Shown here: in pieces, positions 2,304-35,268 of the stretch
Numbering within the stretch: the first letter of the stretch is position 1
How the letters are laid out: every line of letters starts with the position of its first letter
Sequence record: NZ_CP016375.1
DNA length: 35,268 bases
From: a plasmid
Reading direction: 5' to 3' (one strand)
The notes under the pieces: model-generated
Seen by the model: only the letters and a program-made list of their open reading frames with translations
Told to the model about the DNA's origin: nothing
Databases searched by the model: none
Position numbers and translations under genes: made by a program

Positions 2304-2762
2304 TTAGAACTTTCCTTTATATTGTTTCTCTAGCGCAGAAATTATTTCGTGAGCTAATTCCATTCTTGTGTATTCTAAATTTTCCTCTTTATAGATTTTA
2401 TGGTAAATAAAATCATTGAGGAAATTAGTGTCTTCTCTGGAAAGATGTGCAGAGGAATCTTTAATTTCAATATCATCAAGTCTACTTTTTTTGCTTCTTC
2501 TTCCGTTTTTAAAATTAGTTTTCTCCATCCCTCTTTCAATATCTGGATATTTTTTTTCGAGTAGTCCTATTCCTTCCGAAATGGCTTTACTTAAATTATA
2601 ATCCATGTTATGTTCTTTGAGCATCTTATAGTTTCTGAATTTTATAAGCTTTTCATAATCATCAAAATACATTCTAAGAATATAATTTTTTGTTATTACT
2701 TCACTTTTAATATCGTTATTAGAATTAAAATCCTCTAATCTGAAATCATTATTACTCATCAC
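2304..2762 (-). CDS. Partition partner / TraB-like small protein downstream of ParA (possible ParB-function adaptor).
   Basis: Position immediately 3' of parA with a 1-nt overlap. It is highly charged and of the size (152 aa) typical of the protein following ParA-like TraA in Bacteroidetes conjugative elements. No recognisable ParB box by eye. Confidence 0.45.
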   Translation of the reverse strand: MMSNNDFRLEDFNSNNDIKSEVITKNYILRMYFDDYEKLIKFRNYKMLKEHNMDYNLSKAISEGIGLLEKKYPDIERGMEKTNFKNGRRSKKSRLDDIEIKDSSAHLSREDTNFLNDFIYHKIYKEENLEYTRMELAHEIISALEKQYKGKF

Positions 2763-3511
2763 TATATATTTATTTCTTTTAAAATTTCTGTTGCAAGGTC
2801 ATTAAAGTCAAGGCTAGCTCTTGAATGCGGAGCTACTTGAAAAATCGTTTTTCCTTCTTTTTTTGCATTCTCCACATTGACATCTTGTCTAATGAAAGAT
2901 GTTAGAAAATAGTTTCTGGCCTGGGCATTTGCCTTTTCTGTATACTCCCGGAAGTTTCTCGTATTAGTAAGTACTTTATTAAAGAAAAATCCTAAAAATT
3001 TAAGCTTATTATTATGTTCTTTTATAATTCTTTGTATGCTTGGGAATAACTCGTTAATTCCCTCAATAGAATACATTTCTGCCTCAATTGGGCTTATAAC
3101 GTAATCAGAACAAGATAATGCCATTTCTCCAAGGCCTAAACCTCCGGTTAACGGCCGAGGCGGGCAATCAATAATTACAAAATCCAAATTCATTTTACTA
3201 TTAAGAAAATCAATTCGTTCTTTTAATTCATATCTGGAATATTTATCTTTTTCAATATTCCGATCTCCTGCCAAAATAAATAAATTATCTTTTTTTTGAG
3301 TGAGCCTAAAATCTCCGGTTTTATCTAAAAAATTTTTAATTGTATAAGGATAGTCACGATCAATTCTATACCCCATTGACAAGTTCCTTTGAGCGTCAAA
3401 ATCAATCTGCAGAACTTTATAACCCATTTCGGAAAATGAAGCTCCTAAATGAATTGAGGTAGTTGTTTTTCCTACCCCTCCTTTCTCGGTAATTATGGAT
3501 AATATTTTCAT
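2762..3511 (-). CDS. parA: ParA/Soj-family partition ATPase
   Basis: Deviant Walker A 'KGGVGKTTT' at residues 10-18 and overall ParA architecture (249 aa). Confidence 0.9.
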   Translation of the reverse strand: MKILSIITEKGGVGKTTTSIHLGASFSEMGYKVLQIDFDAQRNLSMGYRIDRDYPYTIKNFLDKTGDFRLTQKKDNLFILAGDRNIEKDKYSRYELKERIDFLNSKMNLDFVIIDCPPRPLTGGLGLGEMALSCSDYVISPIEAEMYSIEGINELFPSIQRIIKEHNNKLKFLGFFFNKVLTNTRNFREYTEKANAQARNYFLTSFIRQDVNVENAKKEGKTIFQVAPHSRASLDFNDLATEILKEINI

Positions 3512-4342: not shown

Positions 4343-4666
4343 TTATTTATTTAGATCATTTATAAAAAATTTTAGAAGAGCTTTATCATAACCTATCTCT
4401 TTGAGATATTGAATAAAGTTTTCAAATTTTTGAATCCATCTCTCTTCCATAGATAAAGCAGAATTCATTATACTAAGGCCACTCATATATCTCGGAGATT
4501 CATAAGACCCTAAAAATTTAGTTTTGTATTCCTCCTCAAATTTATTAGCATCTACTTTTGTTAAATCTTTTGATTTCATTTTTTTATAGACAGTATCAAG
4601 GAATTGTATTAATTCTTCATCCTGATTTCCGAATTCCAAATCTTCAAACGGTTTTGTTTTTTTCAT
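4343..4666 (-). CDS. Hypothetical protein (107 aa)
   Basis: ORF on the same strand as the block. Confidence 0.4.
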   Translation of the reverse strand: MKKTKPFEDLEFGNQDEELIQFLDTVYKKMKSKDLTKVDANKFEEEYKTKFLGSYESPRYMSGLSIMNSALSMEERWIQKFENFIQYLKEIGYDKALLKFFINDLNK

Positions 4667-4804
4667 AGTATGTGATTTATGATGTAGTAAAAATATTAAT
4701 AATAAATATATAAAGCAAATATAAAATCACTTTATTTAATTTAAAAATACTATATATTAAGGGTTTATTATAGATAAATAGTATCTGTAGTGTGAAGCAT
4801 AATT

Positions 4805-5235
4805 TTCGATATGATTTTTATTTTTTTTTGCTGAGAGAGGGGGCTTGGAGGGAGAGAGATGCAAAATATCTCTCCCCCGGACATTCAGCCAGGGCAAAGC
4901 TAAAATTGTTTTTTTTACCCTATACTATTAATCATTGGGACATGATACACAAATAAAATTGCCTCTTGTGGGCTTGGGAGGTTCTTCGCCTGCAGGGCGT
5001 GGATACCCAATTTTATTTGGGAAGCAGGAAACCATGATTATACCTTTGTAATTAAAACAGTTTTAGCCCAAAGAGGGCAACATAATTTCCTTAGCTACTG
5101 GCCAGAGGTTGGAACACTAGCACACCGCAAAGGGAAAAGGAGGGGCGGTGTGGACTTAACTTTTAAAGAAAAGAAACCTTCTATCCAAAATTCCTTTTCT
5201 CTTTTCTCTAAAAGTTACATTAAATATAGTCTAGG
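4805..5235. other. GC-rich, hairpin-dense non-coding island with no convincing ORF. Candidate ssDNA promoter / ssi site / structured RNA.
   Basis: Local GC is far above the surroundings. Perfect hairpins include GGGAGAGAGAT-gcaaaat-ATCTCTCCC (~4848-4876) and gcccc-tttc-ggggc (~5318). Only a low-quality overlapping 96-aa ORF is present. Confidence 0.4.
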
Positions 5236-5363
5236 ATTTTGGCGAAATTTTTGACCCCTGGGGAAAAGCTGCAGGAGAAAATTATGCCAAAATATCTTCC
5301 GCTCGACCCGGGCGAAAGAAAGCCCCTTTCGGGGCAATCTAACCATTATTTAAACTATTATGG

Positions 5364-5720
5364 TTATGGGAATACAACAATTTCTCCAAAAGAATATAAT
5401 TTAAGTTCATCATATTTAAAATCAAAGATGTCTATCACTTCACTAAATAAAATTTTCCCCTTTCCATTATCACAAATTAAAGAGAAATGGCAAATTTTGG
5501 GTTCAAGCCTTTTTAAATTCCAAATCTGAAATTTTTCGACTATTGGTATATTTTTCTGATTGGATCTAATAGAAAAAATCATTTTCCTAATATCATCACA
5601 TTCATCAATTAATTGCTTAACTCCTATTGTAATATTAATATCTAAGAATCTATACAATTCCCATTTTGAATGGGAACGTATAAAATTTTTATTCGCTGAA
5701 TTTACTTTTATTTTAGGCAT
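5364..5720 (-). CDS. Hypothetical protein (118 aa)
   Basis: ORF immediately downstream of ardC on the same strand. Confidence 0.45.
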   Translation of the reverse strand: MPKIKVNSANKNFIRSHSKWELYRFLDINITIGVKQLIDECDDIRKMIFSIRSNQKNIPIVEKFQIWNLKRLEPKICHFSLICDNGKGKILFSEVIDIFDFKYDELKLYSFGEIVVFP

Positions 5721-5751: not shown

Positions 5752-6654
5752 TTAATTAAGAAAAGATTCCATGTATTTTTTAGATTTCTTTGCATCTGAA
5801 AAAGCTTTTTTCAGTTCTTCAGCTCTTTCATCTTTATTTGTAAAGGTGGCCGACCAACTTTTCAAATATCTCACGCTGTTAATAAACTCCTCATGTATTC
5901 CAAACTGTAAACAAAGAAGCATAGAGCCTATTTCAGCTACGAGTTCTTCACTACTATAAGATAAAGTTCTGTTTAATCTTGTCGGGTGCATTGTCCAGTG
6001 CGTAAGCTCATGGAATAAAGTAGAGTAATAAGCCGTTTCATTTACAAATTGTTTTTTAATGGGCATTTTTACTTTATCTAAAACCTTGTTATAACTTGCG
6101 CTGCGGGTCATACATTCATATACTTTCAAATTACCTTTTTTAATGAGAGTAATAATAAAATTTTCTGCTTGCTTTAGTTCCTGAAAATCTTCTAAAAAAT
6201 CTTCTTTTATCTCCATATTCAGCTCTTCCCTATTTTCAATATCATCAAAATTGAAAACATTATAAGAACGCAGAAAATAATATTTTTTATAATTGGATCT
6301 TTCAGATTCGGGAATTTGTTTAAATTGATCAGCACTAATTTTTTTTCCTGTCTCCTTATGGGTATAAATAAAGTTTCCGTATTGGATCAAAGAAGATTTT
6401 GAACCTTTCTTTAATTTTCCTCCGGCTTTAGAAATTGCGTTAAAGGTTGCAAAAAGATTTGTTTTTCTTTTTCTGACAATCATATTCAGATAAAGAGAAA
6501 TAGCGTTCTCACCATTATAAAAAGCCTGTGAAAATCCATTTTGAGGCATTTTAAAATCTTTAATATACATTTCCCAATCCTGGGCGTTTACTTCGTCTAA
6601 CATATCAATAATAGAAGTAAAAAATTTATCTTGAATTTGTGTTTGAGTAGCCAT
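5752..6654 (-). CDS. ardC: ArdC-like antirestriction protein (N-terminal ssDNA-binding domain plus C-terminal zincin-like HExxH metalloprotease)
   Basis: C-terminal 'LFHELTHWTMHP' carries an HExxH motif in the ArdC/DUF1738 arrangement. Size is 300 aa. It sits beside an SSB-like gene in a leading-region-like context. Confidence 0.75.
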   Translation of the reverse strand: MATQTQIQDKFFTSIIDMLDEVNAQDWEMYIKDFKMPQNGFSQAFYNGENAISLYLNMIVRKRKTNLFATFNAISKAGGKLKKGSKSSLIQYGNFIYTHKETGKKISADQFKQIPESERSNYKKYYFLRSYNVFNFDDIENREELNMEIKEDFLEDFQELKQAENFIITLIKKGNLKVYECMTRSASYNKVLDKVKMPIKKQFVNETAYYSTLFHELTHWTMHPTRLNRTLSYSSEELVAEIGSMLLCLQFGIHEEFINSVRYLKSWSATFTNKDERAEELKKAFSDAKKSKKYMESFLN

Positions 6655-6741: not shown

Positions 6742-7071
6742 TTACAGTGCGATATCTTTCACTGTGTAATTTCTATTTACAAAGGTTTTGTCTCCTTCAA
6801 CTTTAACATCAATTTCCGGCATTCTGTCTGTAAATATGGTAATAGACTTACCTTTTTTAAGAGAATCTAAAAGGGGGGAACCTTCGTTGCTACTAATCCA
6901 TAATGCAGCATTACAGTAAGTAGTTTTTTGTGTGTAGGTTCCATCATCTTGTCTTTTCCCTGGTTCATTAACTGCAAAGGAGAAATTAATTACTCCTTTG
7001 TCTTCATAGGCTTTAAAGGTTGCATCTTTGGTTAAATTACCACTTAGTGTGATTGATACGATTGAGTTCAT
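6742..7071 (-). CDS. ssb: Single-stranded DNA-binding protein-like (OB-fold, short plasmid type without acidic tail)
   Basis: N-terminus 'MNSIVSITLSGNLTKDATF' resembles the SSB N-terminus (MNKVILIGNLGKDPE). Size and position next to ardC fit. Confidence 0.55.
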   Translation of the reverse strand: MNSIVSITLSGNLTKDATFKAYEDKGVINFSFAVNEPGKRQDDGTYTQKTTYCNAALWISSNEGSPLLDSLKKGKSITIFTDRMPEIDVKVEGDKTFVNRNYTVKDIAL

Positions 7072-7831: not shown

Positions 7832-8593
7832 TTAATAAGAAGAAGACCAATTTAAAGGCTTTCCATTGTAAATAGTGGCGGTTTGCACTTCGTTAATGTT
7901 TATAGATGCGTATTTTGTTAATCTTCTTTCAAATGGCTCTCCTTTCTTTATTTCAGGGTTGGCAATACATGTTCCAGAATCTTGTCGCTCGTAGGTTCTT
8001 GTTTGTCCAATTTCTTGCAAAATCAATTTTGAGTTTTTGCGCTCCAATACTAGATAAAAATTAATGTTGGTTTGCTCATATCCCCAATCTGAATATAAGA
8101 TTGTTCCTTTCTGAATAGTATCGCTTATTGCTTTTTTACTTTCTATAAAACTTAAATTCTTCTCATATTTATCTAGTATTATTTTTTTTATGTTATTAAT
8201 ACCAACCTCTCTAATATCTTCAGCCGTTGCACGGTTAAAATAAGTTGGTTTAGTTTTTCTACCTGTAAAAATCAAAGAATAGTAATAGGTATCTTTTTCA
8301 AATGTGATTATTGTACTATCTAAATAAGTAAAGTTATTAATGTTAGTAGCTTCTTTAGTATAACTATCAATAGTTAGTTGTCTTTTGTCTATTGTATTCA
8401 TAATAATAAATTTTAATGTTTTTGATTGCTTTGATATAGGAAATCTGGGTTCTTCTGGAAGTTGGTAACTTCGATAAGATTTGATAGAAATTTCCTTGTG
8501 TTGTGTGTTTGTTTTTTCGGTGATGTCAAAGAACTTCTGCTGTCTGCTTGCTTCGCTTATGAGGTCTCGGGTTTTCTGTGCCAATTGACCCAA
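7832..8593 (-). CDS. Hypothetical protein (253 aa; an alternative start at MNTIDKRQL would give 7832..8401)
   Basis: Long ORF. No motif recognised. Confidence 0.45.
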   Translation of the reverse strand: MGQLAQKTRDLISEASRQQKFFDITEKTNTQHKEISIKSYRSYQLPEEPRFPISKQSKTLKFIIMNTIDKRQLTIDSYTKEATNINNFTYLDSTIITFEKDTYYYSLIFTGRKTKPTYFNRATAEDIREVGINNIKKIILDKYEKNLSFIESKKAISDTIQKGTILYSDWGYEQTNINFYLVLERKNSKLILQEIGQTRTYERQDSGTCIANPEIKKGEPFERRLTKYASININEVQTATIYNGKPLNWSSSY

Positions 8594-8599
8594 GAAATC

Positions 8600-9260
8600 A
8601 GAGCTGTATACAAAACCGAAATGAATATGCAGGCTTAGAAAACTTTTTGCCGAAGGCTCGGGAGGTTCTGAAAAAAAATTTCAGTAGAGTAGCGGAAGAA
8701 ATTATTTTTTGGAGACCCAAAAAGTTTTTTTTGTGTTCAGCCTGGTTTCTAGATTTGCACCAAGAATAACCAAGAGCTTATGAGTGAAGTGAGGAAATAG
8801 CCTAGAAGTTACATCACCGGGAAAATGAATACAGAATACTTTAGGAAATATCAAATCTTAAAGAAGTCCAACACATAATAAAAAAATAAAATTCCATCGT
8901 GTAGGCCATAAGATAGGGGAGGGGATAGGACCAGAAAAATTTTGAAAAAATATCTGGTCCTATAAAAGGAATCTTATGCCTGGGGACTGACTGCGTTAAA
9001 GATCGCAGCAATTGTCTGAAATCCTTTTTTCGTGAGAAATAGATAAATAAAAAAGTCCAAAAAAGATTAATGAAAAAAGATTGAGTGCGAAGAGCTTGCC
9101 CGTAGGGAACGCCCTGAATATTATAACCAAAGAAAATGATAAAATATTCCCTGATATGAAAAAGCTACAATAGAAAATGCTAAAAATTACAAAAGAAGTT
9201 GCTAAACTACATTAGTTAGTACTAAAAATACAGAAGAAGCTGCAAAAAAAGAAAGAAGAA
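8600..9260. other. Second non-coding island (~650 bp) with locally elevated GC and hairpins, upstream of the ssb-ardC gene block
   Basis: No ORF over 63 aa. There is a perfect 10-bp stem ATAGGACCAG-n18-CTGGTCCTAT (~8925-8962) and several other palindromes. Confidence 0.35.
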
Positions 9261-9263
9261 AAC

Positions 9264-9596
9264 TTATTTTTTCAAAAATTTAAAAAGCTCTGCCATTTGC
9301 TTACTAAAAACTTCTGCAGTTTCTTTATCGGTAATATTAATAATAATATGCCCAGTAGCACTGTCATTATTTTCCACATTAATAAACTTAATGCCTTTGT
9401 TGTCTTCGGTAAACAAATCTTTAATTTCCACTTCGAAAAGCTCTGCAAGCTGAGGAATATATTTTGATTTAACGTCGGCATCTTCACTTTCCCAACTCAT
9501 ATAAGTATTTTTACTCACACCCATTTTATCAGCTACATCCTGTTGAGAAAGCTTAGTTTTACTTCTAAATCGTCTTAAATTAGTACCAACGCCCAT
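9264..9596 (-). CDS. XRE-family helix-turn-helix transcriptional regulator. The ORF is open to 9626; start taken at MGVGTNLRRFR.
   Basis: HTH_3 signature 'LRRFRSKTKLSQQDVADKMGVSKNTYMSWE'. Confidence 0.75.
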   Translation of the reverse strand: MGVGTNLRRFRSKTKLSQQDVADKMGVSKNTYMSWESEDADVKSKYIPQLAELFEVEIKDLFTEDNKGIKFINVENNDSATGHIIINITDKETAEVFSKQMAELFKFLKK

Positions 9597-9740
9597 TTTG
9601 TAAAGTTTATGATAACAAATATACATAAAGCAAAAAAAACTGCGCTAAAATCGCTCAATTTTCTTGTCTCAATTCAAATAATAAAATCCTAATTTTAAAT
9701 CATTAAATCGAGATTAAGTATATATTAGAATGTGAAAAAG

Positions 9741-9775: not shown

Positions 9776-9979
9776 AAAGAGAAAATATTACACATTTCAA
9801 TTTAACATAATAAATAAAAGTCAACAAAACTTACCTAAGTTATTATTTTAGACAACTTTAATATTGTTTTATTGAATATATTTTATACATTAGCAATGAT
9901 TCTAATGAAATTAAGAATCACACCAAAGAGCGGAATCCGAAAAGCTAACGAGTAGGAAAAAATTTAAATTACAAAAAAA

Positions 9980-10225
9980 ATGAAAAAATTAGACGGTCTA
10001 AAAAATGGTTTTTCAACATTAGACAATGAAAAATTAAAAAATGTAAGAGGTGGATTACTATCTCCGGAAGATGGAGGAGGAAAAGTATCTATTAGATCAA
10101 ACATTACAAGAGAGGATGGAGCTGTAGAAACAGATGTTTACGATAGAGCACCAGATGGAACTCTTATCAATGGTAGAAGGTCTTGGGTATTGATGCAAGA
10201 ACCCTCAGTTACGGTAGAGCCATAA
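9980..10225 (+). CDS. RiPP precursor peptide with a Bacteroidetes double-glycine-type leader (MKKL...EKLKNVRGG) and a 56-aa Cys-free, S/T/D/E-rich core
   Basis: Leader matches the GG-Bacteroidetes natural-product precursor pattern (MKKLxxLKxxxxxLxxxELKxIxGG). It lies immediately upstream of an ATP-grasp/SPASM maturase operon and is followed by a strong terminator. Confidence 0.7.
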   Translation: MKKLDGLKNGFSTLDNEKLKNVRGGLLSPEDGGGKVSIRSNITREDGAVETDVYDRAPDGTLINGRRSWVLMQEPSVTVEP

Positions 10226-18482: not shown

Positions 18483-19937
18483 TTATTTATTTTGAGTTTG
18501 TATTAAAGCACTTCCTTCTATTTTCTCATATCTCCCTTGGGTATCATAAACAAAAATAACGTATCTGCCACTTTTTACATCATCATTATTTCTATTGTTT
18601 TTATCCAAACTTTGATCATCATCAATCTGTCTGTCTTTTTCATCTACTTTTTCCGGAAAATCATTATAGTCAATAGTATATGAGTGTTTTGTTTCCGCCC
18701 AATCTCTAAATTGAAAATATGTTTCTACTACAATTTTAGATATTTTATTTCCTGCTCCTGTGTTTGCATTTACAGATATTTTAGCTCCTTTGTAAGAAAT
18801 CCAACTTGTGTCAAAATTTTGATAAGTTCCTTTATGTTTATCTACTAATAAAACAACACTCCCACTATTAATTTTTATAGGATTATCTACTTTTATTTGA
18901 AATTGTTTTACATCTGATTCATTACCAAATTCATCTTTTAATTGAATATTAAGAGTATAATCTCCTGTTTTTAAAGCTTGCAAATCTAGTTTCAATTGGT
19001 TATTATCTCCTAAAGCATATTGTTGATATGTACCGTTTGTAGTGGTAATTCCATCTGCTATAACATTTTGTCCTGATACCCATGTTTTATAGAATAAATC
19101 TCCTGATACTTTTGGATTCTTTTTAACAACAGCTTGTAATGAAAATCTTTGATTAGGTTCTAAAACATTTTTTGAAATAGAAGCATCTCCATCAAAAGAA
19201 ACAGTTCTAGCCAAAATATTTTGTTGAATATCCAGATCTCTTGATACTGTAGTATTTTTTATTGTATACGATAATTTTGATTGCCCAATTTTGGTGGATA
19301 ATGTAGAAATAGAAAAATTTGAAATATCATTAATTGGATACTCTTTGCCTAGCTCTACATTACCTCCTTCAAATTTAATCTTTCCATCAAAAGAATTAAA
19401 TTTGATACTGTACCCTTTTGTGTCTGTATTTTTAGCAGGTGTTATTTTTCCTACGTATGATATTTCTTGCCCCTGATAAAAGTCGCCATTTCCACCTTCC
19501 AATTTTACTTGAAAATCACTTACTCCATATTTCAACTCAAATTCTTCTGTCTGTGATTGATCTTTAGCATTTTTAGCCGAAATTTTAAGTTTATGAGTTC
19601 CGGCCTCATTCCCTGTATATTTTAGAATATTGCTCGCACTTTTTAACTCATATTCCTTATTTTGTTCCAAAGTTATGTCTCCTAATTTCAACACTCCGTT
19701 CAAATCCCCAGAGTACTTAATTACCATAGGAACAGTTGCAAAATCATAGTTTGCTTTAATATTAAACTTAATATCTGTAGTTTCTCCAACAGCTTTCTCC
19801 TGGAAGTCTTTATCTCTTTCTACTGTAAATCCAAATTGTCCGTTGGTTTGGTTATTACCCCAATCGCCATCAGAACGGCAGGAATTAAAAAGAAATAATG
19901 ATAATATAGTTACGAATAAAAAAAATGTCTTTTTCAT
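18483..19937 (-). CDS. Surface lipoprotein with repeated beta-sandwich-like segments, last gene of the tra operon (function unknown; adhesin/mating-pair candidate)
   Basis: Lipobox-like 'LFNSC'. S/T/G/N-rich with repeated 'KLxxGxxxLE / KFxxGN' segments. Confidence 0.5.
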   Translation of the reverse strand: MKKTFFLFVTILSLFLFNSCRSDGDWGNNQTNGQFGFTVERDKDFQEKAVGETTDIKFNIKANYDFATVPMVIKYSGDLNGVLKLGDITLEQNKEYELKSASNILKYTGNEAGTHKLKISAKNAKDQSQTEEFELKYGVSDFQVKLEGGNGDFYQGQEISYVGKITPAKNTDTKGYSIKFNSFDGKIKFEGGNVELGKEYPINDISNFSISTLSTKIGQSKLSYTIKNTTVSRDLDIQQNILARTVSFDGDASISKNVLEPNQRFSLQAVVKKNPKVSGDLFYKTWVSGQNVIADGITTTNGTYQQYALGDNNQLKLDLQALKTGDYTLNIQLKDEFGNESDVKQFQIKVDNPIKINSGSVVLLVDKHKGTYQNFDTSWISYKGAKISVNANTGAGNKISKIVVETYFQFRDWAETKHSYTIDYNDFPEKVDEKDRQIDDDQSLDKNNRNNDDVKSGRYVIFVYDTQGRYEKIEGSALIQTQNK

Positions 19938-19958
19938 AATTTGAATTTTTGTGATTAA

Positions 19959-20531
19959 TTAATTTACATAAAATCTTAAGCCTCCGAATATCCCATAGCT
20001 TCCCTTAGAAAACTTAGATTGCATGTCATAAAATTGATTGTAATTAGCAATGAAGCTTAGCTTAGTAGGGATTAAAGCAACTTCAACTTCTGCTGTTCCG
20101 GAAATACCATAAGTAAATCCTTTTACTTTATCCGGAATCCTAGCATTAAATAACGGATCATTCTCATTTCCGTTATTAATCTTTTCATACCCTGCGAAAA
20201 CTCCGGCAAATGCATTAAGATAAACAGGCTTTAGTCCTTCATAAGTCCATCCCGCCTGAACGTTAACACCGTAACGTTCGTAGGCAAGTCTTTGATTATT
20301 GGAATAATCAACCTCGTACTTTCCATAGATAGCCTCTGCTTTTCCTAGCCATCCTTTTTCATTAAATACCTTAAGATAACCTACATTAGCCATAAATGCA
20401 GCTTCTTTAGTATCGCTCATAGATGGCATAAAACCATATTGAGCATGAATACCACTCTGTCCATTTCGACGTCCCTGTGCAAATCCAAGAACGCTTACTA
20501 AAAGAAATAAAAATAACGCTTGTCTTTTCAT
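19959..20531 (-). CDS. traO: Conjugative-transposon-type TraO-like protein (small OM protein)
   Basis: Signal peptide, about 190 aa, aromatic C-terminus 'GGLRFYVN'. Its position after the TraN-like gene follows Bacteroidetes tra order. Confidence 0.45.
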   Translation of the reverse strand: MKRQALFLFLLVSVLGFAQGRRNGQSGIHAQYGFMPSMSDTKEAAFMANVGYLKVFNEKGWLGKAEAIYGKYEVDYSNNQRLAYERYGVNVQAGWTYEGLKPVYLNAFAGVFAGYEKINNGNENDPLFNARIPDKVKGFTYGISGTAEVEVALIPTKLSFIANYNQFYDMQSKFSKGSYGIFGGLRFYVN

Positions 20532-20553
20532 ATTGTGCGATTTAAAAATTTGT

Positions 20554-21240
20554 TTAATTAATATATTCTGCCCCGTTTATATATTTTGAGGCAATAGGTA
20601 CAATGATTATCCTTTCCCCATCCTGCTCCTGAATGGTCATTTGTAAAACACTTCTTTCAGAAACGGTAAACTTATCAAATACAAAAATTAATTTCTGCTT
20701 AGATTTTTTCATAAGCTTTGAAAAATCTGTTTGCCAGATTGCAGGGACTTCTTTATTCAAATCCTTACTTCCTTTATCATCATCAATGCTTCTTTTTTCA
20801 AATGAAATAACTTCGATATCATAATTAATATTCGTTGTATTTTGCATTTCAACCATGATAAAAATTTTCTCTTTTCCGCTCCAAACTCCTTTTAAATAAG
20901 CCCATACCCCACGATTCCCATAAGAATTTCTGTTACTAATCCACCCTTTTTTATTTTCCAGTTTTTTTACCAGTGGCATATAAGATTCCTCCTCCGTAGC
21001 TTTTGGTTGATCTGCTTTTGGTTCTGTCTGTACTGGTTGGCTAACAGGTGTAGCAATATTTGATATAACAGCAGTACTATCTTGTACTATGGGTACTTTA
21101 TGAGCAGGTTTTTGAACCACTGTTTTTTTCCCCTTGGTAGTCTTCTTATAAGTCTTCTTTTTCATTTGGGCACTCATAGAAATGCTTAATAAAGCTAGCC
21201 CGGTTAAAATAATTTTTCTCATATATGTTTTACTTTTCAT
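20554..21240 (-). CDS. traN: TraN-like (VirB9-like) T4SS protein
   Basis: Signal peptide and position between the TraM-like and TraO-like genes. At 228 aa it is shorter than typical TraN. Confidence 0.45.
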   Translation of the reverse strand: MKSKTYMRKIILTGLALLSISMSAQMKKKTYKKTTKGKKTVVQKPAHKVPIVQDSTAVISNIATPVSQPVQTEPKADQPKATEEESYMPLVKKLENKKGWISNRNSYGNRGVWAYLKGVWSGKEKIFIMVEMQNTTNINYDIEVISFEKRSIDDDKGSKDLNKEVPAIWQTDFSKLMKKSKQKLIFVFDKFTVSERSVLQMTIQEQDGERIIIVPIASKYINGAEYIN

Positions 21241-32989: not shown

Positions 32990-33139
32990 AGTATATAGAA
33001 TGTGTATAGTTTCAAATTTAATAAAAATTATTTATTTTCAATACTTTAAATAAATTTAATCATAAAATATATAGAAAAAATATAGAAAATCTATATTAAT
33101 TTTTCATAATTAATTTTTAAAATACTAAAAACCAAACAG

Positions 33140-33210
33140 ATATAAACAGCGGAATTTTTTTCCGCCGTTTCCTCTTGCTTCTCCTATATTTGTCCACTTC
33201 GCTACCAAAT
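33140..33210. promoter_or_regulatory. Candidate oriT: inverted repeat ACAGCGGAA-t7-TCCGCCGTT followed by tcctcttgcttctcctatatttgtcc, about 150 bp upstream of the mob operon
   Basis: An IR-then-nic-region architecture, as in MOBQ/MOBP oriTs, at the position expected upstream of the accessory/relaxase operon. Confidence 0.35.
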
Positions 33211-33956: not shown

Positions 33957-34754
33957 TTGTATCGTACGATACAAATTTTAATTATGAAACCAACTCTCGA
34001 ATTCTATAATTTATTCCAATTTATTTATGACTATCTGAATGAAAATTTATTTTCAAATCAACTTCCTAATTGTATGATAGTTATTACCCGAAAAAATAGA
34101 ACTTTTGGTTATTATTCAAAAGAAAGGTGGGTAAACAAGGAAAAATTAATGACTGATGAATTGGCCATTAATCCAATGTTTTTTAGTAAATATCCATTAA
34201 TTGAAATGCTGCAGACGATGGGACACGAAATGTGCCATTTATGGCAAGATCATTTCGGAAGACCTTCACGAAGAAGCTACCACAACAAAGAATGGGGAAA
34301 CAAAATGATCTCTATTGGCCTTATGCCTTCAAACACTGGAAAGCCCGGAGGAAAAAAAACGGGTCAACAAATGATGGATTACCCAATTGAAAACGGAATT
34401 TTTATAAAGACCTGTGCGGAAATGATAAAAAATCCCCTATTTGAAAAACTATGGTACGATAGAACTACTACAATCAAAATATTAAATACAAATAGCGGAA
34501 TTTCTGATCTACAGGAAGAAAAGCCAAATACGGAAGAAGAAATAATTGAATTTCTTTATTCAACTTTTACAGTAGAGCAGCCTCTACTTACATCAAGTTC
34601 TGACAGTTCTAAGAGTAAATATACCTGTCATAATTGTGATCTTAATGTTTGGGGAAAACCCCAATTATCAATTATCTGTGGTGAATGTGGAGCTGATTTT
34701 GAAGAAATCTCCATCAATTCTATAACTTTGGAATCTATTAACAATAATTTTTGA
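33957..34754 (+). CDS. SprT-like zinc metalloprotease with C-terminal zinc ribbon (the start may be at MKPTLEFYN, 33984)
   Basis: 'MTDELAINPMFF...TMGHEMCHLWQ' is an HExxH in SprT-like context. C-terminal 'CHNCD...CGECG' is a four-Cys ribbon. Confidence 0.65.
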   Translation: MYRTIQILIMKPTLEFYNLFQFIYDYLNENLFSNQLPNCMIVITRKNRTFGYYSKERWVNKEKLMTDELAINPMFFSKYPLIEMLQTMGHEMCHLWQDHFGRPSRRSYHNKEWGNKMISIGLMPSNTGKPGGKKTGQQMMDYPIENGIFIKTCAEMIKNPLFEKLWYDRTTTIKILNTNSGISDLQEEKPNTEEEIIEFLYSTFTVEQPLLTSSSDSSKSKYTCHNCDLNVWGKPQLSIICGECGADFEEISINSITLESINNNF

Positions 34755-34905: not shown

Positions 34906-35105
34906 AACTCCGCCCCCTAGTGAAATTTTTTATAATCTCTTTTGGACTAATAATAAATATTAACTATACTCTACCATTTATTATCCAGGAGAAAACATTT
35001 ATATGCAGTCTATAAAACAAATGCTTTTTAAATATCAAATGTTTTATAATACATAGCTTTTTAGCCTTCGGGAGAACCTCTATTTATAGGCATTGGGAAG
35101 AATAA
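34906..35105. other. AT-rich stretch adjacent to the iterons: candidate DNA-unwinding element of the vegetative origin
   Basis: About 200 bp at well over 75% AT, with no ORF, between repeat copy 4 and the iteron array. Confidence 0.4.
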
Positions 35106-35268
35106 TAATGTAGGTCTATCCGTCATAACTATGTAGGTCTATCCGTCAAAAAGACAGCTAACTATGTAGGTCTATCCGTCAATATATTTTTATCTATGTA
35201 GGTGAATCCGCTTCAACTATGTAGGTCTATCCGCTTATTATGTAGGTGCGTCCGTCAACTATGTAGGT
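35106..35268. repeat. Iteron array, 3' half: about 7 copies of the same ~21-bp unit with more irregular 21-32 bp spacing
   Basis: ATGTAGGTCTATCCGTCA / CTATGTAGGTGAATCCGCTTCA and similar. The array runs to the last base and continues in register at base 1. Confidence 0.85.

Follow-up and report, generated by a model that had tools for sequence, protein, structure and literature searches.

The 35,268-bp stretch of plasmid DNA analysed here (sequence record NZ_CP016375.1; the whole stretch is called the window below) is collinear, in reverse orientation, with pEa_277-17 (NZ_CP071549), a 37-kb conjugative plasmid of Elizabethkingia anophelis, and is itself a Weeksellaceae (Flavobacteriales) conjugative plasmid of ~35 kb. 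The − strand carries nearly all of its genes, among them a one-directional block that encodes ParA (2762-3511), a 107-aa protein (4343-4666, with its ATG at 4666), DUF6876 (5364-5720), an ArdC-type anti-restriction protein (5752-6654) and SSB (6742-7071), which is typical establishment (leading-region) content. Between the 107-aa gene and the DUF6876 gene of this block lies a GC-rich island, the subject of this analysis. Comparison with related plasmids indicates that the island belongs to a real and conserved module that is selected as a structure, and the function that we consider most likely for it, with confidence and doubt in about equal measure, is that of a promoter and/or primer site that folds back on single-stranded DNA (ssDNA) to serve establishment genes.

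In 300-nt windows over 4801-5400 the GC content is 0.39-0.40, compared with 0.22-0.28 on either side, and the GC skew turns positive over the island, the + strand being G-rich. A preliminary description of this DNA, made from its letters alone, had singled out 4805-5235 as a hairpin-dense interval unlike its flanks in composition and without a credible open reading frame (ORF), and on all three counts our analysis agrees with it. The ORFs inside the island are short (31-54 aa), one 96-aa ORF with a TTG start extends out of it, and there is no conserved coding, because homologues are separated throughout by frame-breaking indels of 1-4 nt. Folded as ssDNA, 4670-5345 has a minimum free energy (MFE) of −94.8 kcal/mol on the + strand (z = −6.5) and −91.3 kcal/mol on the − strand (z = −5.4), well below the −66 and −62 kcal/mol of shuffled sequences, and in a plasmid-wide, GC-corrected sliding scan of 300-nt windows the island is among the most structured segments, together with a second island at 8500-8800. 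The limits of the feature needed revision: 4805-5235 is real, but the true unit is larger, spanning 4676-5340 with a core at 4676-5070, and of the two perfect stems named in the description, both of which exist, GCCCC-TTTC-GGGGC lies beyond its interval, at 5322-5335.

Rfam 15 covariance models were applied at the gathering score to the window, to pEa_277-17 and to the Chryseobacterium joostei and C. taklimakanense plasmids discussed below, and with E values up to 10 to this island and up to 1 to the second one. No relevant family matched in either island. At the gathering score, DUF805b was the only match in these sequences; within 4600-5500, matches with E up to 10 were at chance level (≤22 bits); and none of the models for group II introns, retrons, STAXI and Flavo-1 reached its gathering threshold in the window. 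The idea that the island is a remnant of an intron or retroelement RNA finds no support in these searches, which included the intron families, or in the ORFs nearby, none of which encodes a reverse transcriptase or maturase. A search for tRNA and tmRNA returned none, and a phage collection was without a match to the island. Two further candidates were discarded: sigma-70 promoters are not enriched in the window (8 found against 7.7 expected), that model being wrong for Bacteroidota, and a − strand box, TAGCTTTG at 4902, is conserved in no homologue and is attributed to chance.

The module, which we call A-type, has a core (4676-5070, + strand) that is present in every copy and consists of a proximal promoter, a palindrome, a T-run and two hairpins, H1 and H2. 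Promoters of Bacteroidota have the consensus −33 TTTG and −7 TAnnTTTG (PMC2483708, PMC7366714), and a scan for TAnnTTTG placed a conventional double-strand promoter candidate, P1, on the − strand at 4716-4723, where the −7 box TATATTTG precedes the ATG at 4666 by ~50 nt. It is followed at 4742-4789 by an AT-rich palindromic block, an inverted repeat and candidate repressor operator with the centre TATATTAAGGGTTTATTATA (TATAATAAGGGCTTATTATA in pEa_277-17), which is the best-conserved stretch of the alignments and occurs solely within copies of the module. The alignments then show, on the + strand, a T-run at 4815-4828, whose length ranges from T9 to T13 in the homologues, and then a G-rich tract. 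H1 (4847-4878, + strand) pairs GGGAGAGAGAT (4850-4860) with ATCTCTCCC (4868-4876) in a perfect stem around the conserved loop GCAAAAT. The G-rich tract before and within H1 (4836-4860), which lies on the presumed transferred strand, forms a canonical G-quadruplex motif of four runs in the pEa_277-17 copies (GGGAGTGGGGTTTGGGGGAGAGGG), and in the window it comprises no more than three runs of G, the shortest being GG.

H2 (4899-5067, + strand), the proposed fold-back promoter, is an imperfect hairpin of ~170 nt with a small three-way apex, predicted by both MFE folding and RNAalifold. Beyond the core, 5071-5321 of the + strand holds the distal hairpins H3 (5121-5152), H4 (5157-5217), H5 (5236-5293) and H6 (5300-5314). 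The unit is closed by a terminator-like hairpin of the upstream DUF6876 gene (5322-5335, − strand; GCCCCGAAAGGGGC then TTTCTTTCG), which has a T-tail on the − strand only. A long-range closing helix between 4829-4848 and 5320-5340, proposed by RNAalifold, was not adopted, as it competes with the terminator hairpin.

With blastn, three copies of the module were found in pEa_277-17, covering window positions 4676-5057 at ~72% identity. Homologues of higher identity lie on a metagenome contig (97%), a Logan contig (89%) and an E. miricola contig (86%). The three pEa_277-17 copies lie within 4.5 kb in one orientation and are near-identical to each other. All sit upstream of genes, the next gene being within ~50 nt in two of them; copy 1, found ~300-850 nt upstream of a broken ArdC gene, is the core alone (window 4676-5070), ending at the base of H2 without H3-H6, and copies 2 and 3 are whole modules with diverged distal hairpins. 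The P1 box is kept in the metagenome, Logan and E. miricola contigs and reads TATACTTG in pEa_277-17, and one pair of the H1 stem has changed from A-T to G-C on both sides in the Logan and E. miricola contigs and pEa_277-17. H3-H6 recur as the same hairpins with changed sequence in the window group and pEa_277-17 copies 2 and 3, as in H4, where a stem reads GAAAAGA/TCTTTTC in one and AAACTAG/CTAGTTT in the other. The module is thus kept in related Elizabethkingia plasmids.

The boundaries of the module match mosaic joints between plasmids. A contig of E. argentiflava keeps only the 115-nt gene-proximal part with the palindrome, at 95% identity, and has no GC-rich island. On that contig (3589-3907), the ArdC and DUF6876 genes and the island are absent between SSB and the next gene, and an ArdC-like gene is found elsewhere, beside a DUF5712 fragment. 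When 4700-5400 and 8403-9263 were searched with blastn (word size 11) against 72,556 plasmids, a collection assumed to include numerous F-like plasmids of enterobacteria, the sole hits were one record from Elizabethkingia and two from Chryseobacterium. The exact two-arm pattern of H2 was found in no genome contig or viral contig and in one near-identical metagenome contig, and a search of genome contigs for ArdC loci gave distant proteobacterial loci only.

H2 shows evidence of selection. In an alignment of seven copies, RNAalifold and pair counts gave 46 predicted pairs; 99.7% of the cells were paired, and in 12 of the pairs both bases had changed. In controls in which the partners were slid by 1-3 columns, 36-50% of the cells were paired and 1-3 pairs had changes on both sides. 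This pattern of substitution indicates that H2 is under selection for pairing. Its parts are constrained in different ways. A 12-bp stem, CAAATAAAATTG/CAATTTTATTTG, is invariant in the seven sequences. Little or no variation is seen either in ATACCTTTG, which forms the 3′ side of an internal bubble, or in the stem that comes next, GTAATTnAAA paired with TTTTTTAC. In two spacer helices and the outer base stem the sequence is free and the pairing is kept, the base stem occurring as GCTAAAATTG/CAGTTTTAGC, GGCAGAACTG/CAGTTCTGCC or GGAAGA/TCTTCC. As read from the alignment, this conservation is promoter-like: two fixed elements, a free-sequence spacer of fixed length and a start region.

The fixed elements coincide with candidate host promoter boxes. 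On the + strand, TTTG, a candidate −33 element, lies inside the invariant 12-bp stem at 5016-5019, and 21 nt downstream TACCTTTG (5041-5048) matches the −7 consensus TAnnTTTG in the conserved internal bubble of the 3′ arm. In the predicted fold only the final G of TACCTTTG is paired, and the box points from the loop to the base. The 3′ arm of H2 thus carries TTTG-N21-TACCTTTG, aimed at the downstream gene if the + strand is the template. In duplex form H2 lacks such a promoter towards the genes, because the − strand mirror of the box, TAGTATAG, is not a box.

The second island (8403-9263), likewise non-coding and richer in GC, contains an element of comparable design. Its single imperfect hairpin of ~440 nt (8456-8896, + strand), which we call B-type, lies upstream of a 189-aa gene (7832-8401, − strand) at the end of a further run of small genes after SSB, and its fold departs from shuffled sequences with z = −11.9. 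The 3′ arm carries the −7 box TAGATTTG at 8750-8757, and on the strand of the 189-aa gene no exact TAnnTTTG occurs from the hairpin to the start codon. B-type elements are without a proximal box or palindrome of the A-type kind. The two types are interchangeable, because pEa_277-17 has its A-type copy 1 at the position of the B-type hairpin of the window. A 111-aa gene call over the B-type hairpin in the E. miricola contig and a 253-aa TTG ORF in the window were rejected, as their frames disagree among homologues; the conserved gene near the hairpin is the 189-aa ORF.

Relatives of the B-type hairpin extend the comparison to six plasmid lineages in two Bacteroidota classes, always before ArdC or other establishment genes. 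The C. joostei plasmid has two copies, 99% identical, in a block of SSB and DUF6876 genes, and single hairpins lie upstream of ArdC in C. taklimakanense, Myroides odoratimimus pFM-G13, Chryseobacterium sp. SNU WT7 and, from a different class, Sphingobacterium faecium pWB8. On the template strand, TAnnTTTG occupies the same place in the 3′ arm in all six lineages, exactly in five (TAGATTTG in the window and TAATTTTG in the four with ArdC) and as CAAATTTG in C. joostei. In every lineage GCA comes after the box and a T-run before it, and ahead of that run most have ACCCAA or a near variant; an ACCCAA-type element is also found in the A-type H2. The arms covary: a comparison of the window with C. 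joostei shows 13 pairs in which both bases differ.

Two observations concern the surroundings of B-type hairpins. Just past the hairpin of the window, 8985-9113 is the sole non-coding segment common to the window, pEa_277-17, C. joostei and C. taklimakanense (71-80% identity), and it resembles the Flavo-1 RNA family weakly and below threshold (21.6 bits, where the gathering score is 42; E = 0.077). The C. taklimakanense (1-1100 and 19690-20560) and SNU WT7 (5875-6450) records have non-coding stretches of 1-1.4 kb with further large hairpins beyond the B-type one, and these also favour the template strand, for example with −42.9 against −32.2 kcal/mol at 19701-20000 of C. taklimakanense.

A preference for one strand runs through most of these structures. 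On the + strand, the opposed bases of the B-type hairpin of the window include 16 G·T and 3 A·C (p ~0.002 by our binomial estimate), and its MFE is −85.0 kcal/mol, compared with −66.2 kcal/mol on the − strand. H2 has 6 G·U columns on the + strand and 1 A·C cell. The MFE of the template strand beats that of the coding strand in every other island examined, B-type islands of the relatives included. As a plasmid-wide mean it is the coding-sense strand that folds slightly better, and the B-type hairpin of the window and the A-type copies of pEa_277-17 are the most extreme outliers of their plasmids in the opposite direction (z 4.3-4.5).

As a rule, relaxases are encoded in the lagging region, beside the origin of transfer (oriT) (PMC11541004). 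In the window, the relaxase operon, which begins with a DUF5712 relaxase-type protein and continues with a coupling protein (T4CP) and Bacteroidota-type tra genes, runs downwards from 32989 on the − strand; with the lagging-region rule, this makes the + strand, the template of the block genes, the likely transferred strand. It would enter the recipient 5′ end first, by way of the rep/ParA region, and each module would arrive just after the genes it would drive. In C. taklimakanense and SNU WT7 the unit of B-type hairpin and ArdC adjoins the relaxase operon, and transcription of ArdC runs in the direction of the operon, as this geometry predicts. Upstream of the relaxase operon of the window, 33083-33181 is the only part conserved with pEa_277-17 (75%), and it holds an inverted repeat, GCGGAATTTTTTTCCGC, near 33150-33170 that is an oriT candidate.

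The closest known parallel is Frpo of the F plasmid, in which the transferred strand forms stem-loops that recreate the −35 and −10 boxes and are required for early expression of leading genes (PMC9849209, PMC11541004); Frpo1 and Frpo2 are 92% identical, lie 5 kb apart and each stand upstream of leading genes (PMC9849209). Like the modules described here, Frpo1, Frpo2 and the Frpo-like single-strand initiation (ssi) sequences of ColIb-P9 are non-coding, span a few hundred nucleotides and precede ssb, anti-restriction or SOS-inhibition genes. In both cases the template strand of the downstream genes folds into a long imperfect stem-loop that rebuilds host promoter boxes aimed at those genes, and several highly similar copies can occur a few kilobases apart (here three A-type copies in pEa_277-17 and two B-type copies in C. 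joostei). By sequence similarity, the criterion used by Samuel et al. 2024, neither island is related to the known Frpo or ssi sequences in our blastn search of the 72,556 plasmids. The boxes also differ, −33 TTTG and −7 TAnnTTTG here against TTGACA and TATAAT in Frpo; the −7 box here lies partly or wholly in a bubble; and the A-type module adds further hairpins, an adjoining conventional promoter candidate and a palindrome. By this analogy, the module is most likely the Bacteroidota counterpart of Frpo in function and architecture, not in sequence.

The preliminary description had listed an Frpo-like ssDNA promoter or ssi site among its candidates, and this is the one that the comparative evidence favours, because of the establishment context, the repeated copies upstream of genes, the covarying hairpin, the boxes in the right arm and orientation and the folding preference of the template strand. 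During conjugation, the + strand, from which ParA, DUF6876, ArdC, SSB and the adjacent genes are read, would enter the recipient, where H2 would fold back and rebuild a host-type promoter, with the −33 TTTG in the invariant duplex, TACCTTTG displayed on the non-template arm in a pre-opened bubble, and a duplex start region after it. The RNA polymerase of the recipient might then transcribe from the loop to the base, down the 5′ arm and out into the genes at 4666 and below, yielding early mRNA and possibly also, as with Frpo, a primer for synthesis of the complementary strand. Conversion to double-stranded DNA would end the hairpin promoter, and expression would move to P1 (4723-4716), probably under control through the palindrome at 4742-4789.

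More broadly, and with slightly less confidence than doubt, we propose that conjugative plasmids of Bacteroidota (Flavobacteriia and Sphingobacteriia) may possess their own family of fold-back ssDNA promoters, built on the phylum-specific sigma-A consensus and unrelated in sequence to Frpo, that would drive ArdC, SSB and their partners from the incoming strand while it is still single. Under the same tentative proposal, the family would be marked by a T-run or TTTG, a spacer and TAnnTTTG, with a half-melted −7 box on the non-template arm, and the Elizabethkingia variant would combine a shorter hairpin with extra hairpins and a repressible conventional promoter. A full-text literature search yielded no report joining an ssDNA promoter with conjugation in Bacteroidota.

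Several observations weigh against a fold-back promoter. First, the comparative sample is small in effect, the seven copies of H2 amounting to about four independent lineages, and the assignment of the + strand as the transferred one rests on the relaxase rule. Second, the −7 box, which would be expected to be better conserved if it were required, is exact only in the window and the metagenome contig; it reads TACCTTCG (7/8) in the E. miricola and Logan contigs, CACCTTTG (7/8) in pEa_277-17 copies 1 and 3, and CACCTTG, with one T lost, in copy 2. The spacing between the −33 and −7 boxes, 21 nt in the A-type and 14-17 nt in the B-type, is off the optimum of 19 nt for Flavobacterium. Third, the strand bias of the A-type module of the window is weak for H2 (−28.3 kcal/mol on the + strand and −24.5 kcal/mol on the −) and absent for the island as a whole, the distal part slightly favouring the − strand, and many G·T pairs are at least as typical of RNA structures as of DNA. 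Lastly, the A-type gene already has an ordinary promoter candidate adjoining it in P1, and H3-H6, which likewise keep their stems through sequence change, are not needed by a simple fold-back promoter.

The same structural, strand and context evidence would be expected if the modules were only priming (ssi) sites, whose hairpins recruit primase, a primosome or RNA polymerase and from which no productive mRNA arises. The presence of several distal hairpins suits a site of priming or assembly better than a promoter, and Frpo was reportedly first described, by Masai and Arai in 1997, as serving both transcription and primer RNA synthesis. A reading by RNA polymerase of promoter elements on a folded single strand, giving a primer or transcript, is also the principle of ssoA and ssoU of rolling-circle plasmids and of the hairpin promoters of phage N4. 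These differ from our elements in being lagging-strand origins of rolling-circle replication or in using a phage-encoded polymerase, and they have no known link to conjugative establishment genes and no sequence relation to the modules. We regard priming alone as unlikely, given that the conserved blocks fit the host promoter consensus and are aimed at genes, and that every copy is placed immediately upstream of a gene and not at arbitrary points along the DNA strand; priming and promoter functions are moreover mutually compatible.

About as unlikely, in our judgement, is a structured non-coding RNA (ncRNA) from the + strand, antisense to the block, that would comprise the whole island or start at ~5055 from TTTG-N21-TACCTTTG and run to 5322-5335. 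In double-stranded DNA the + strand boxes do form a complete rightward promoter, a raised GC content is a well-known mark of ncRNAs in AT-rich genomes, the G·U-rich stems favour the + strand, and the stems of H3-H6 are kept through sequence change between the window and pEa_277-17. A start at 5055, however, would omit the 5′ arm of H2, though pairing in H2 appears selected, and as regards an RNA with both arms, 7 of the 9 elements contain no exact TAnnTTTG in the 300 nt that lie 5′ of the hairpin on the strand that folds, which argues against a dedicated RNA of this kind; in the A-type module of the window the sole such box is 295 nt away, inside the neighbouring gene. The island lacks both the promoter of its own at the 5′ end and the same-strand terminator that define a canonical intergenic small RNA: the structured small or antisense RNA suggested in the preliminary description has no promoter that we could find 5′ of the hairpins on the folding strand, and no + strand T-tail follows 5335. 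No Rfam family matches, copy 1 of pEa_277-17 is entirely without H3-H6, and a near-perfect hairpin of 440 nt, as in the B-type, is unusual for an ncRNA. STAXI of Rfam, which occurs near Ssbp, Topoisomerase, Antirestriction and XerDC integrase genes and has been proposed as possibly acting as ssDNA, raises the same question of RNA or ssDNA for a conserved structure beside SSB and anti-restriction genes of mobile elements; it differs in being a short repeated pseudoknot compared with hairpins of 170-440 nt, and it gave no match at the gathering score.

We give a similarly low probability to a double-strand promoter and operator cassette for zygotic induction, in which P1 and the palindrome would be the functional parts and the hairpins insulators, terminators or recombination joints. 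There are documented cases of establishment promoters under repressor control: CUP of the IncN plasmid pKM101 with ArdK, and the Reg576 operators of Bacillus p576, are repeated upstream promoters with a repressor site, active in a short burst once transfer has taken place (PMC6289460, PMC6294495). The P1 box and the palindrome (4716-4789) resemble such a layer, with the repressor site as a candidate; they are the best-conserved parts and occur in every copy, the E. argentiflava contig keeps exactly this 115-nt part without the island, the module boundaries fall at mosaic joints, and the window encodes an HTH regulator (9264-9626, − strand). CUP and Reg576, by contrast, are ordinary double-strand promoters not reported to need a long covarying hairpin or a strand bias in folding, and a cassette of this type would leave the selection for pairing in H2, its invariant stem and bubble and the template-strand bias unexplained, as well as the B-type elements, which are without such a proximal box or palindrome. 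The P1 and palindrome layer probably coexists with the hairpin function instead of replacing it.

Given that the island lies between two co-directional genes and that the window copy folds on either strand nearly alike, the hairpins could also be RNA structures of the − strand transcript, in the leader or between the DUF6876 and 107-aa cistrons, that control processing, stability or read-through; the slight preference of the distal part for the − strand would fit. We consider this distinctly improbable. On the − strand the island has a terminator before it and a promoter box after it, and for H2, for the copies in pEa_277-17 and for every B-type hairpin the better fold is that of the opposite strand, where the 16 G·T pairs of the B-type hairpin stand; on the − strand these would turn into A·C mismatches. 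The folding strand is the template of the neighbouring genes, which argues against a structure in − strand mRNA. Least probable is a selfish repeat, a palindromic mobile element or one resembling miniature inverted-repeat transposable elements that has spread in plasmids with no host function, since the several near-identical copies, the long inverted-repeat architecture of the B-type and the gain, loss and swapping between related plasmids are outweighed by copies that occur only upstream of establishment genes in one orientation, by the lack of others in the blastn search of 72,556 plasmids, and by compensatory change and an invariant core across two Bacteroidota classes.

Early expression of anti-defence and establishment genes from the incoming single strand is documented for enterobacterial plasmids with Frpo of the sigma-70 type, and searches for such elements have used similarity to Frpo or TTGACA/TATAAT boxes (PMC11541004). 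Criteria of this sort would miss elements in Bacteroidota, because the phylum has a different promoter grammar. If the fold-back promoter is correct, the strategy arose independently in Bacteroidota or diverged there past recognition, a phylum in which clinical Elizabethkingia, Chryseobacterium and Myroides and resistance plasmids such as pWB8 are found. The model would further provide a simple, searchable signature, a template-strand hairpin with TAnnTTTG on its 3′ arm upstream of ArdC or SSB, by which leading regions and the polarity of transfer could be annotated where the oriT of a plasmid is not known, and the half-open −7 box would lend itself to the study of promoter recognition by the unusual sigma factor of Bacteroidota.

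The remaining features of the window bear on the plasmid as a whole. A Rep gene (163-1449, − strand) precedes ParA, and several small ORFs lie on the − strand between ParA and the 107-aa gene. Beside the rep gene, tandem iterons with units of ~20-30 nt containing TATGTAGGTCTATCCGTCA occupy 35100-35268 and 1-160, and both ends of the window fall inside this region; because the window starts and stops within iterons, it probably represents an entire circular plasmid, split at the origin of replication. Among the few + strand genes is one for a SprT-like metalloprotease (33957-34754), between the presumed oriT and the replication origin. The DUF805b RNA motif (Rfam RF02914; 37.9 bits, above threshold) lies at 9927-9958 on the + strand, just 5′ of a small ORF (9980-10225) that heads a + strand cluster; the same motif is found in pEa_277-17, where the cluster that follows it is annotated as a grasp-with-spasm peptide-maturase system.

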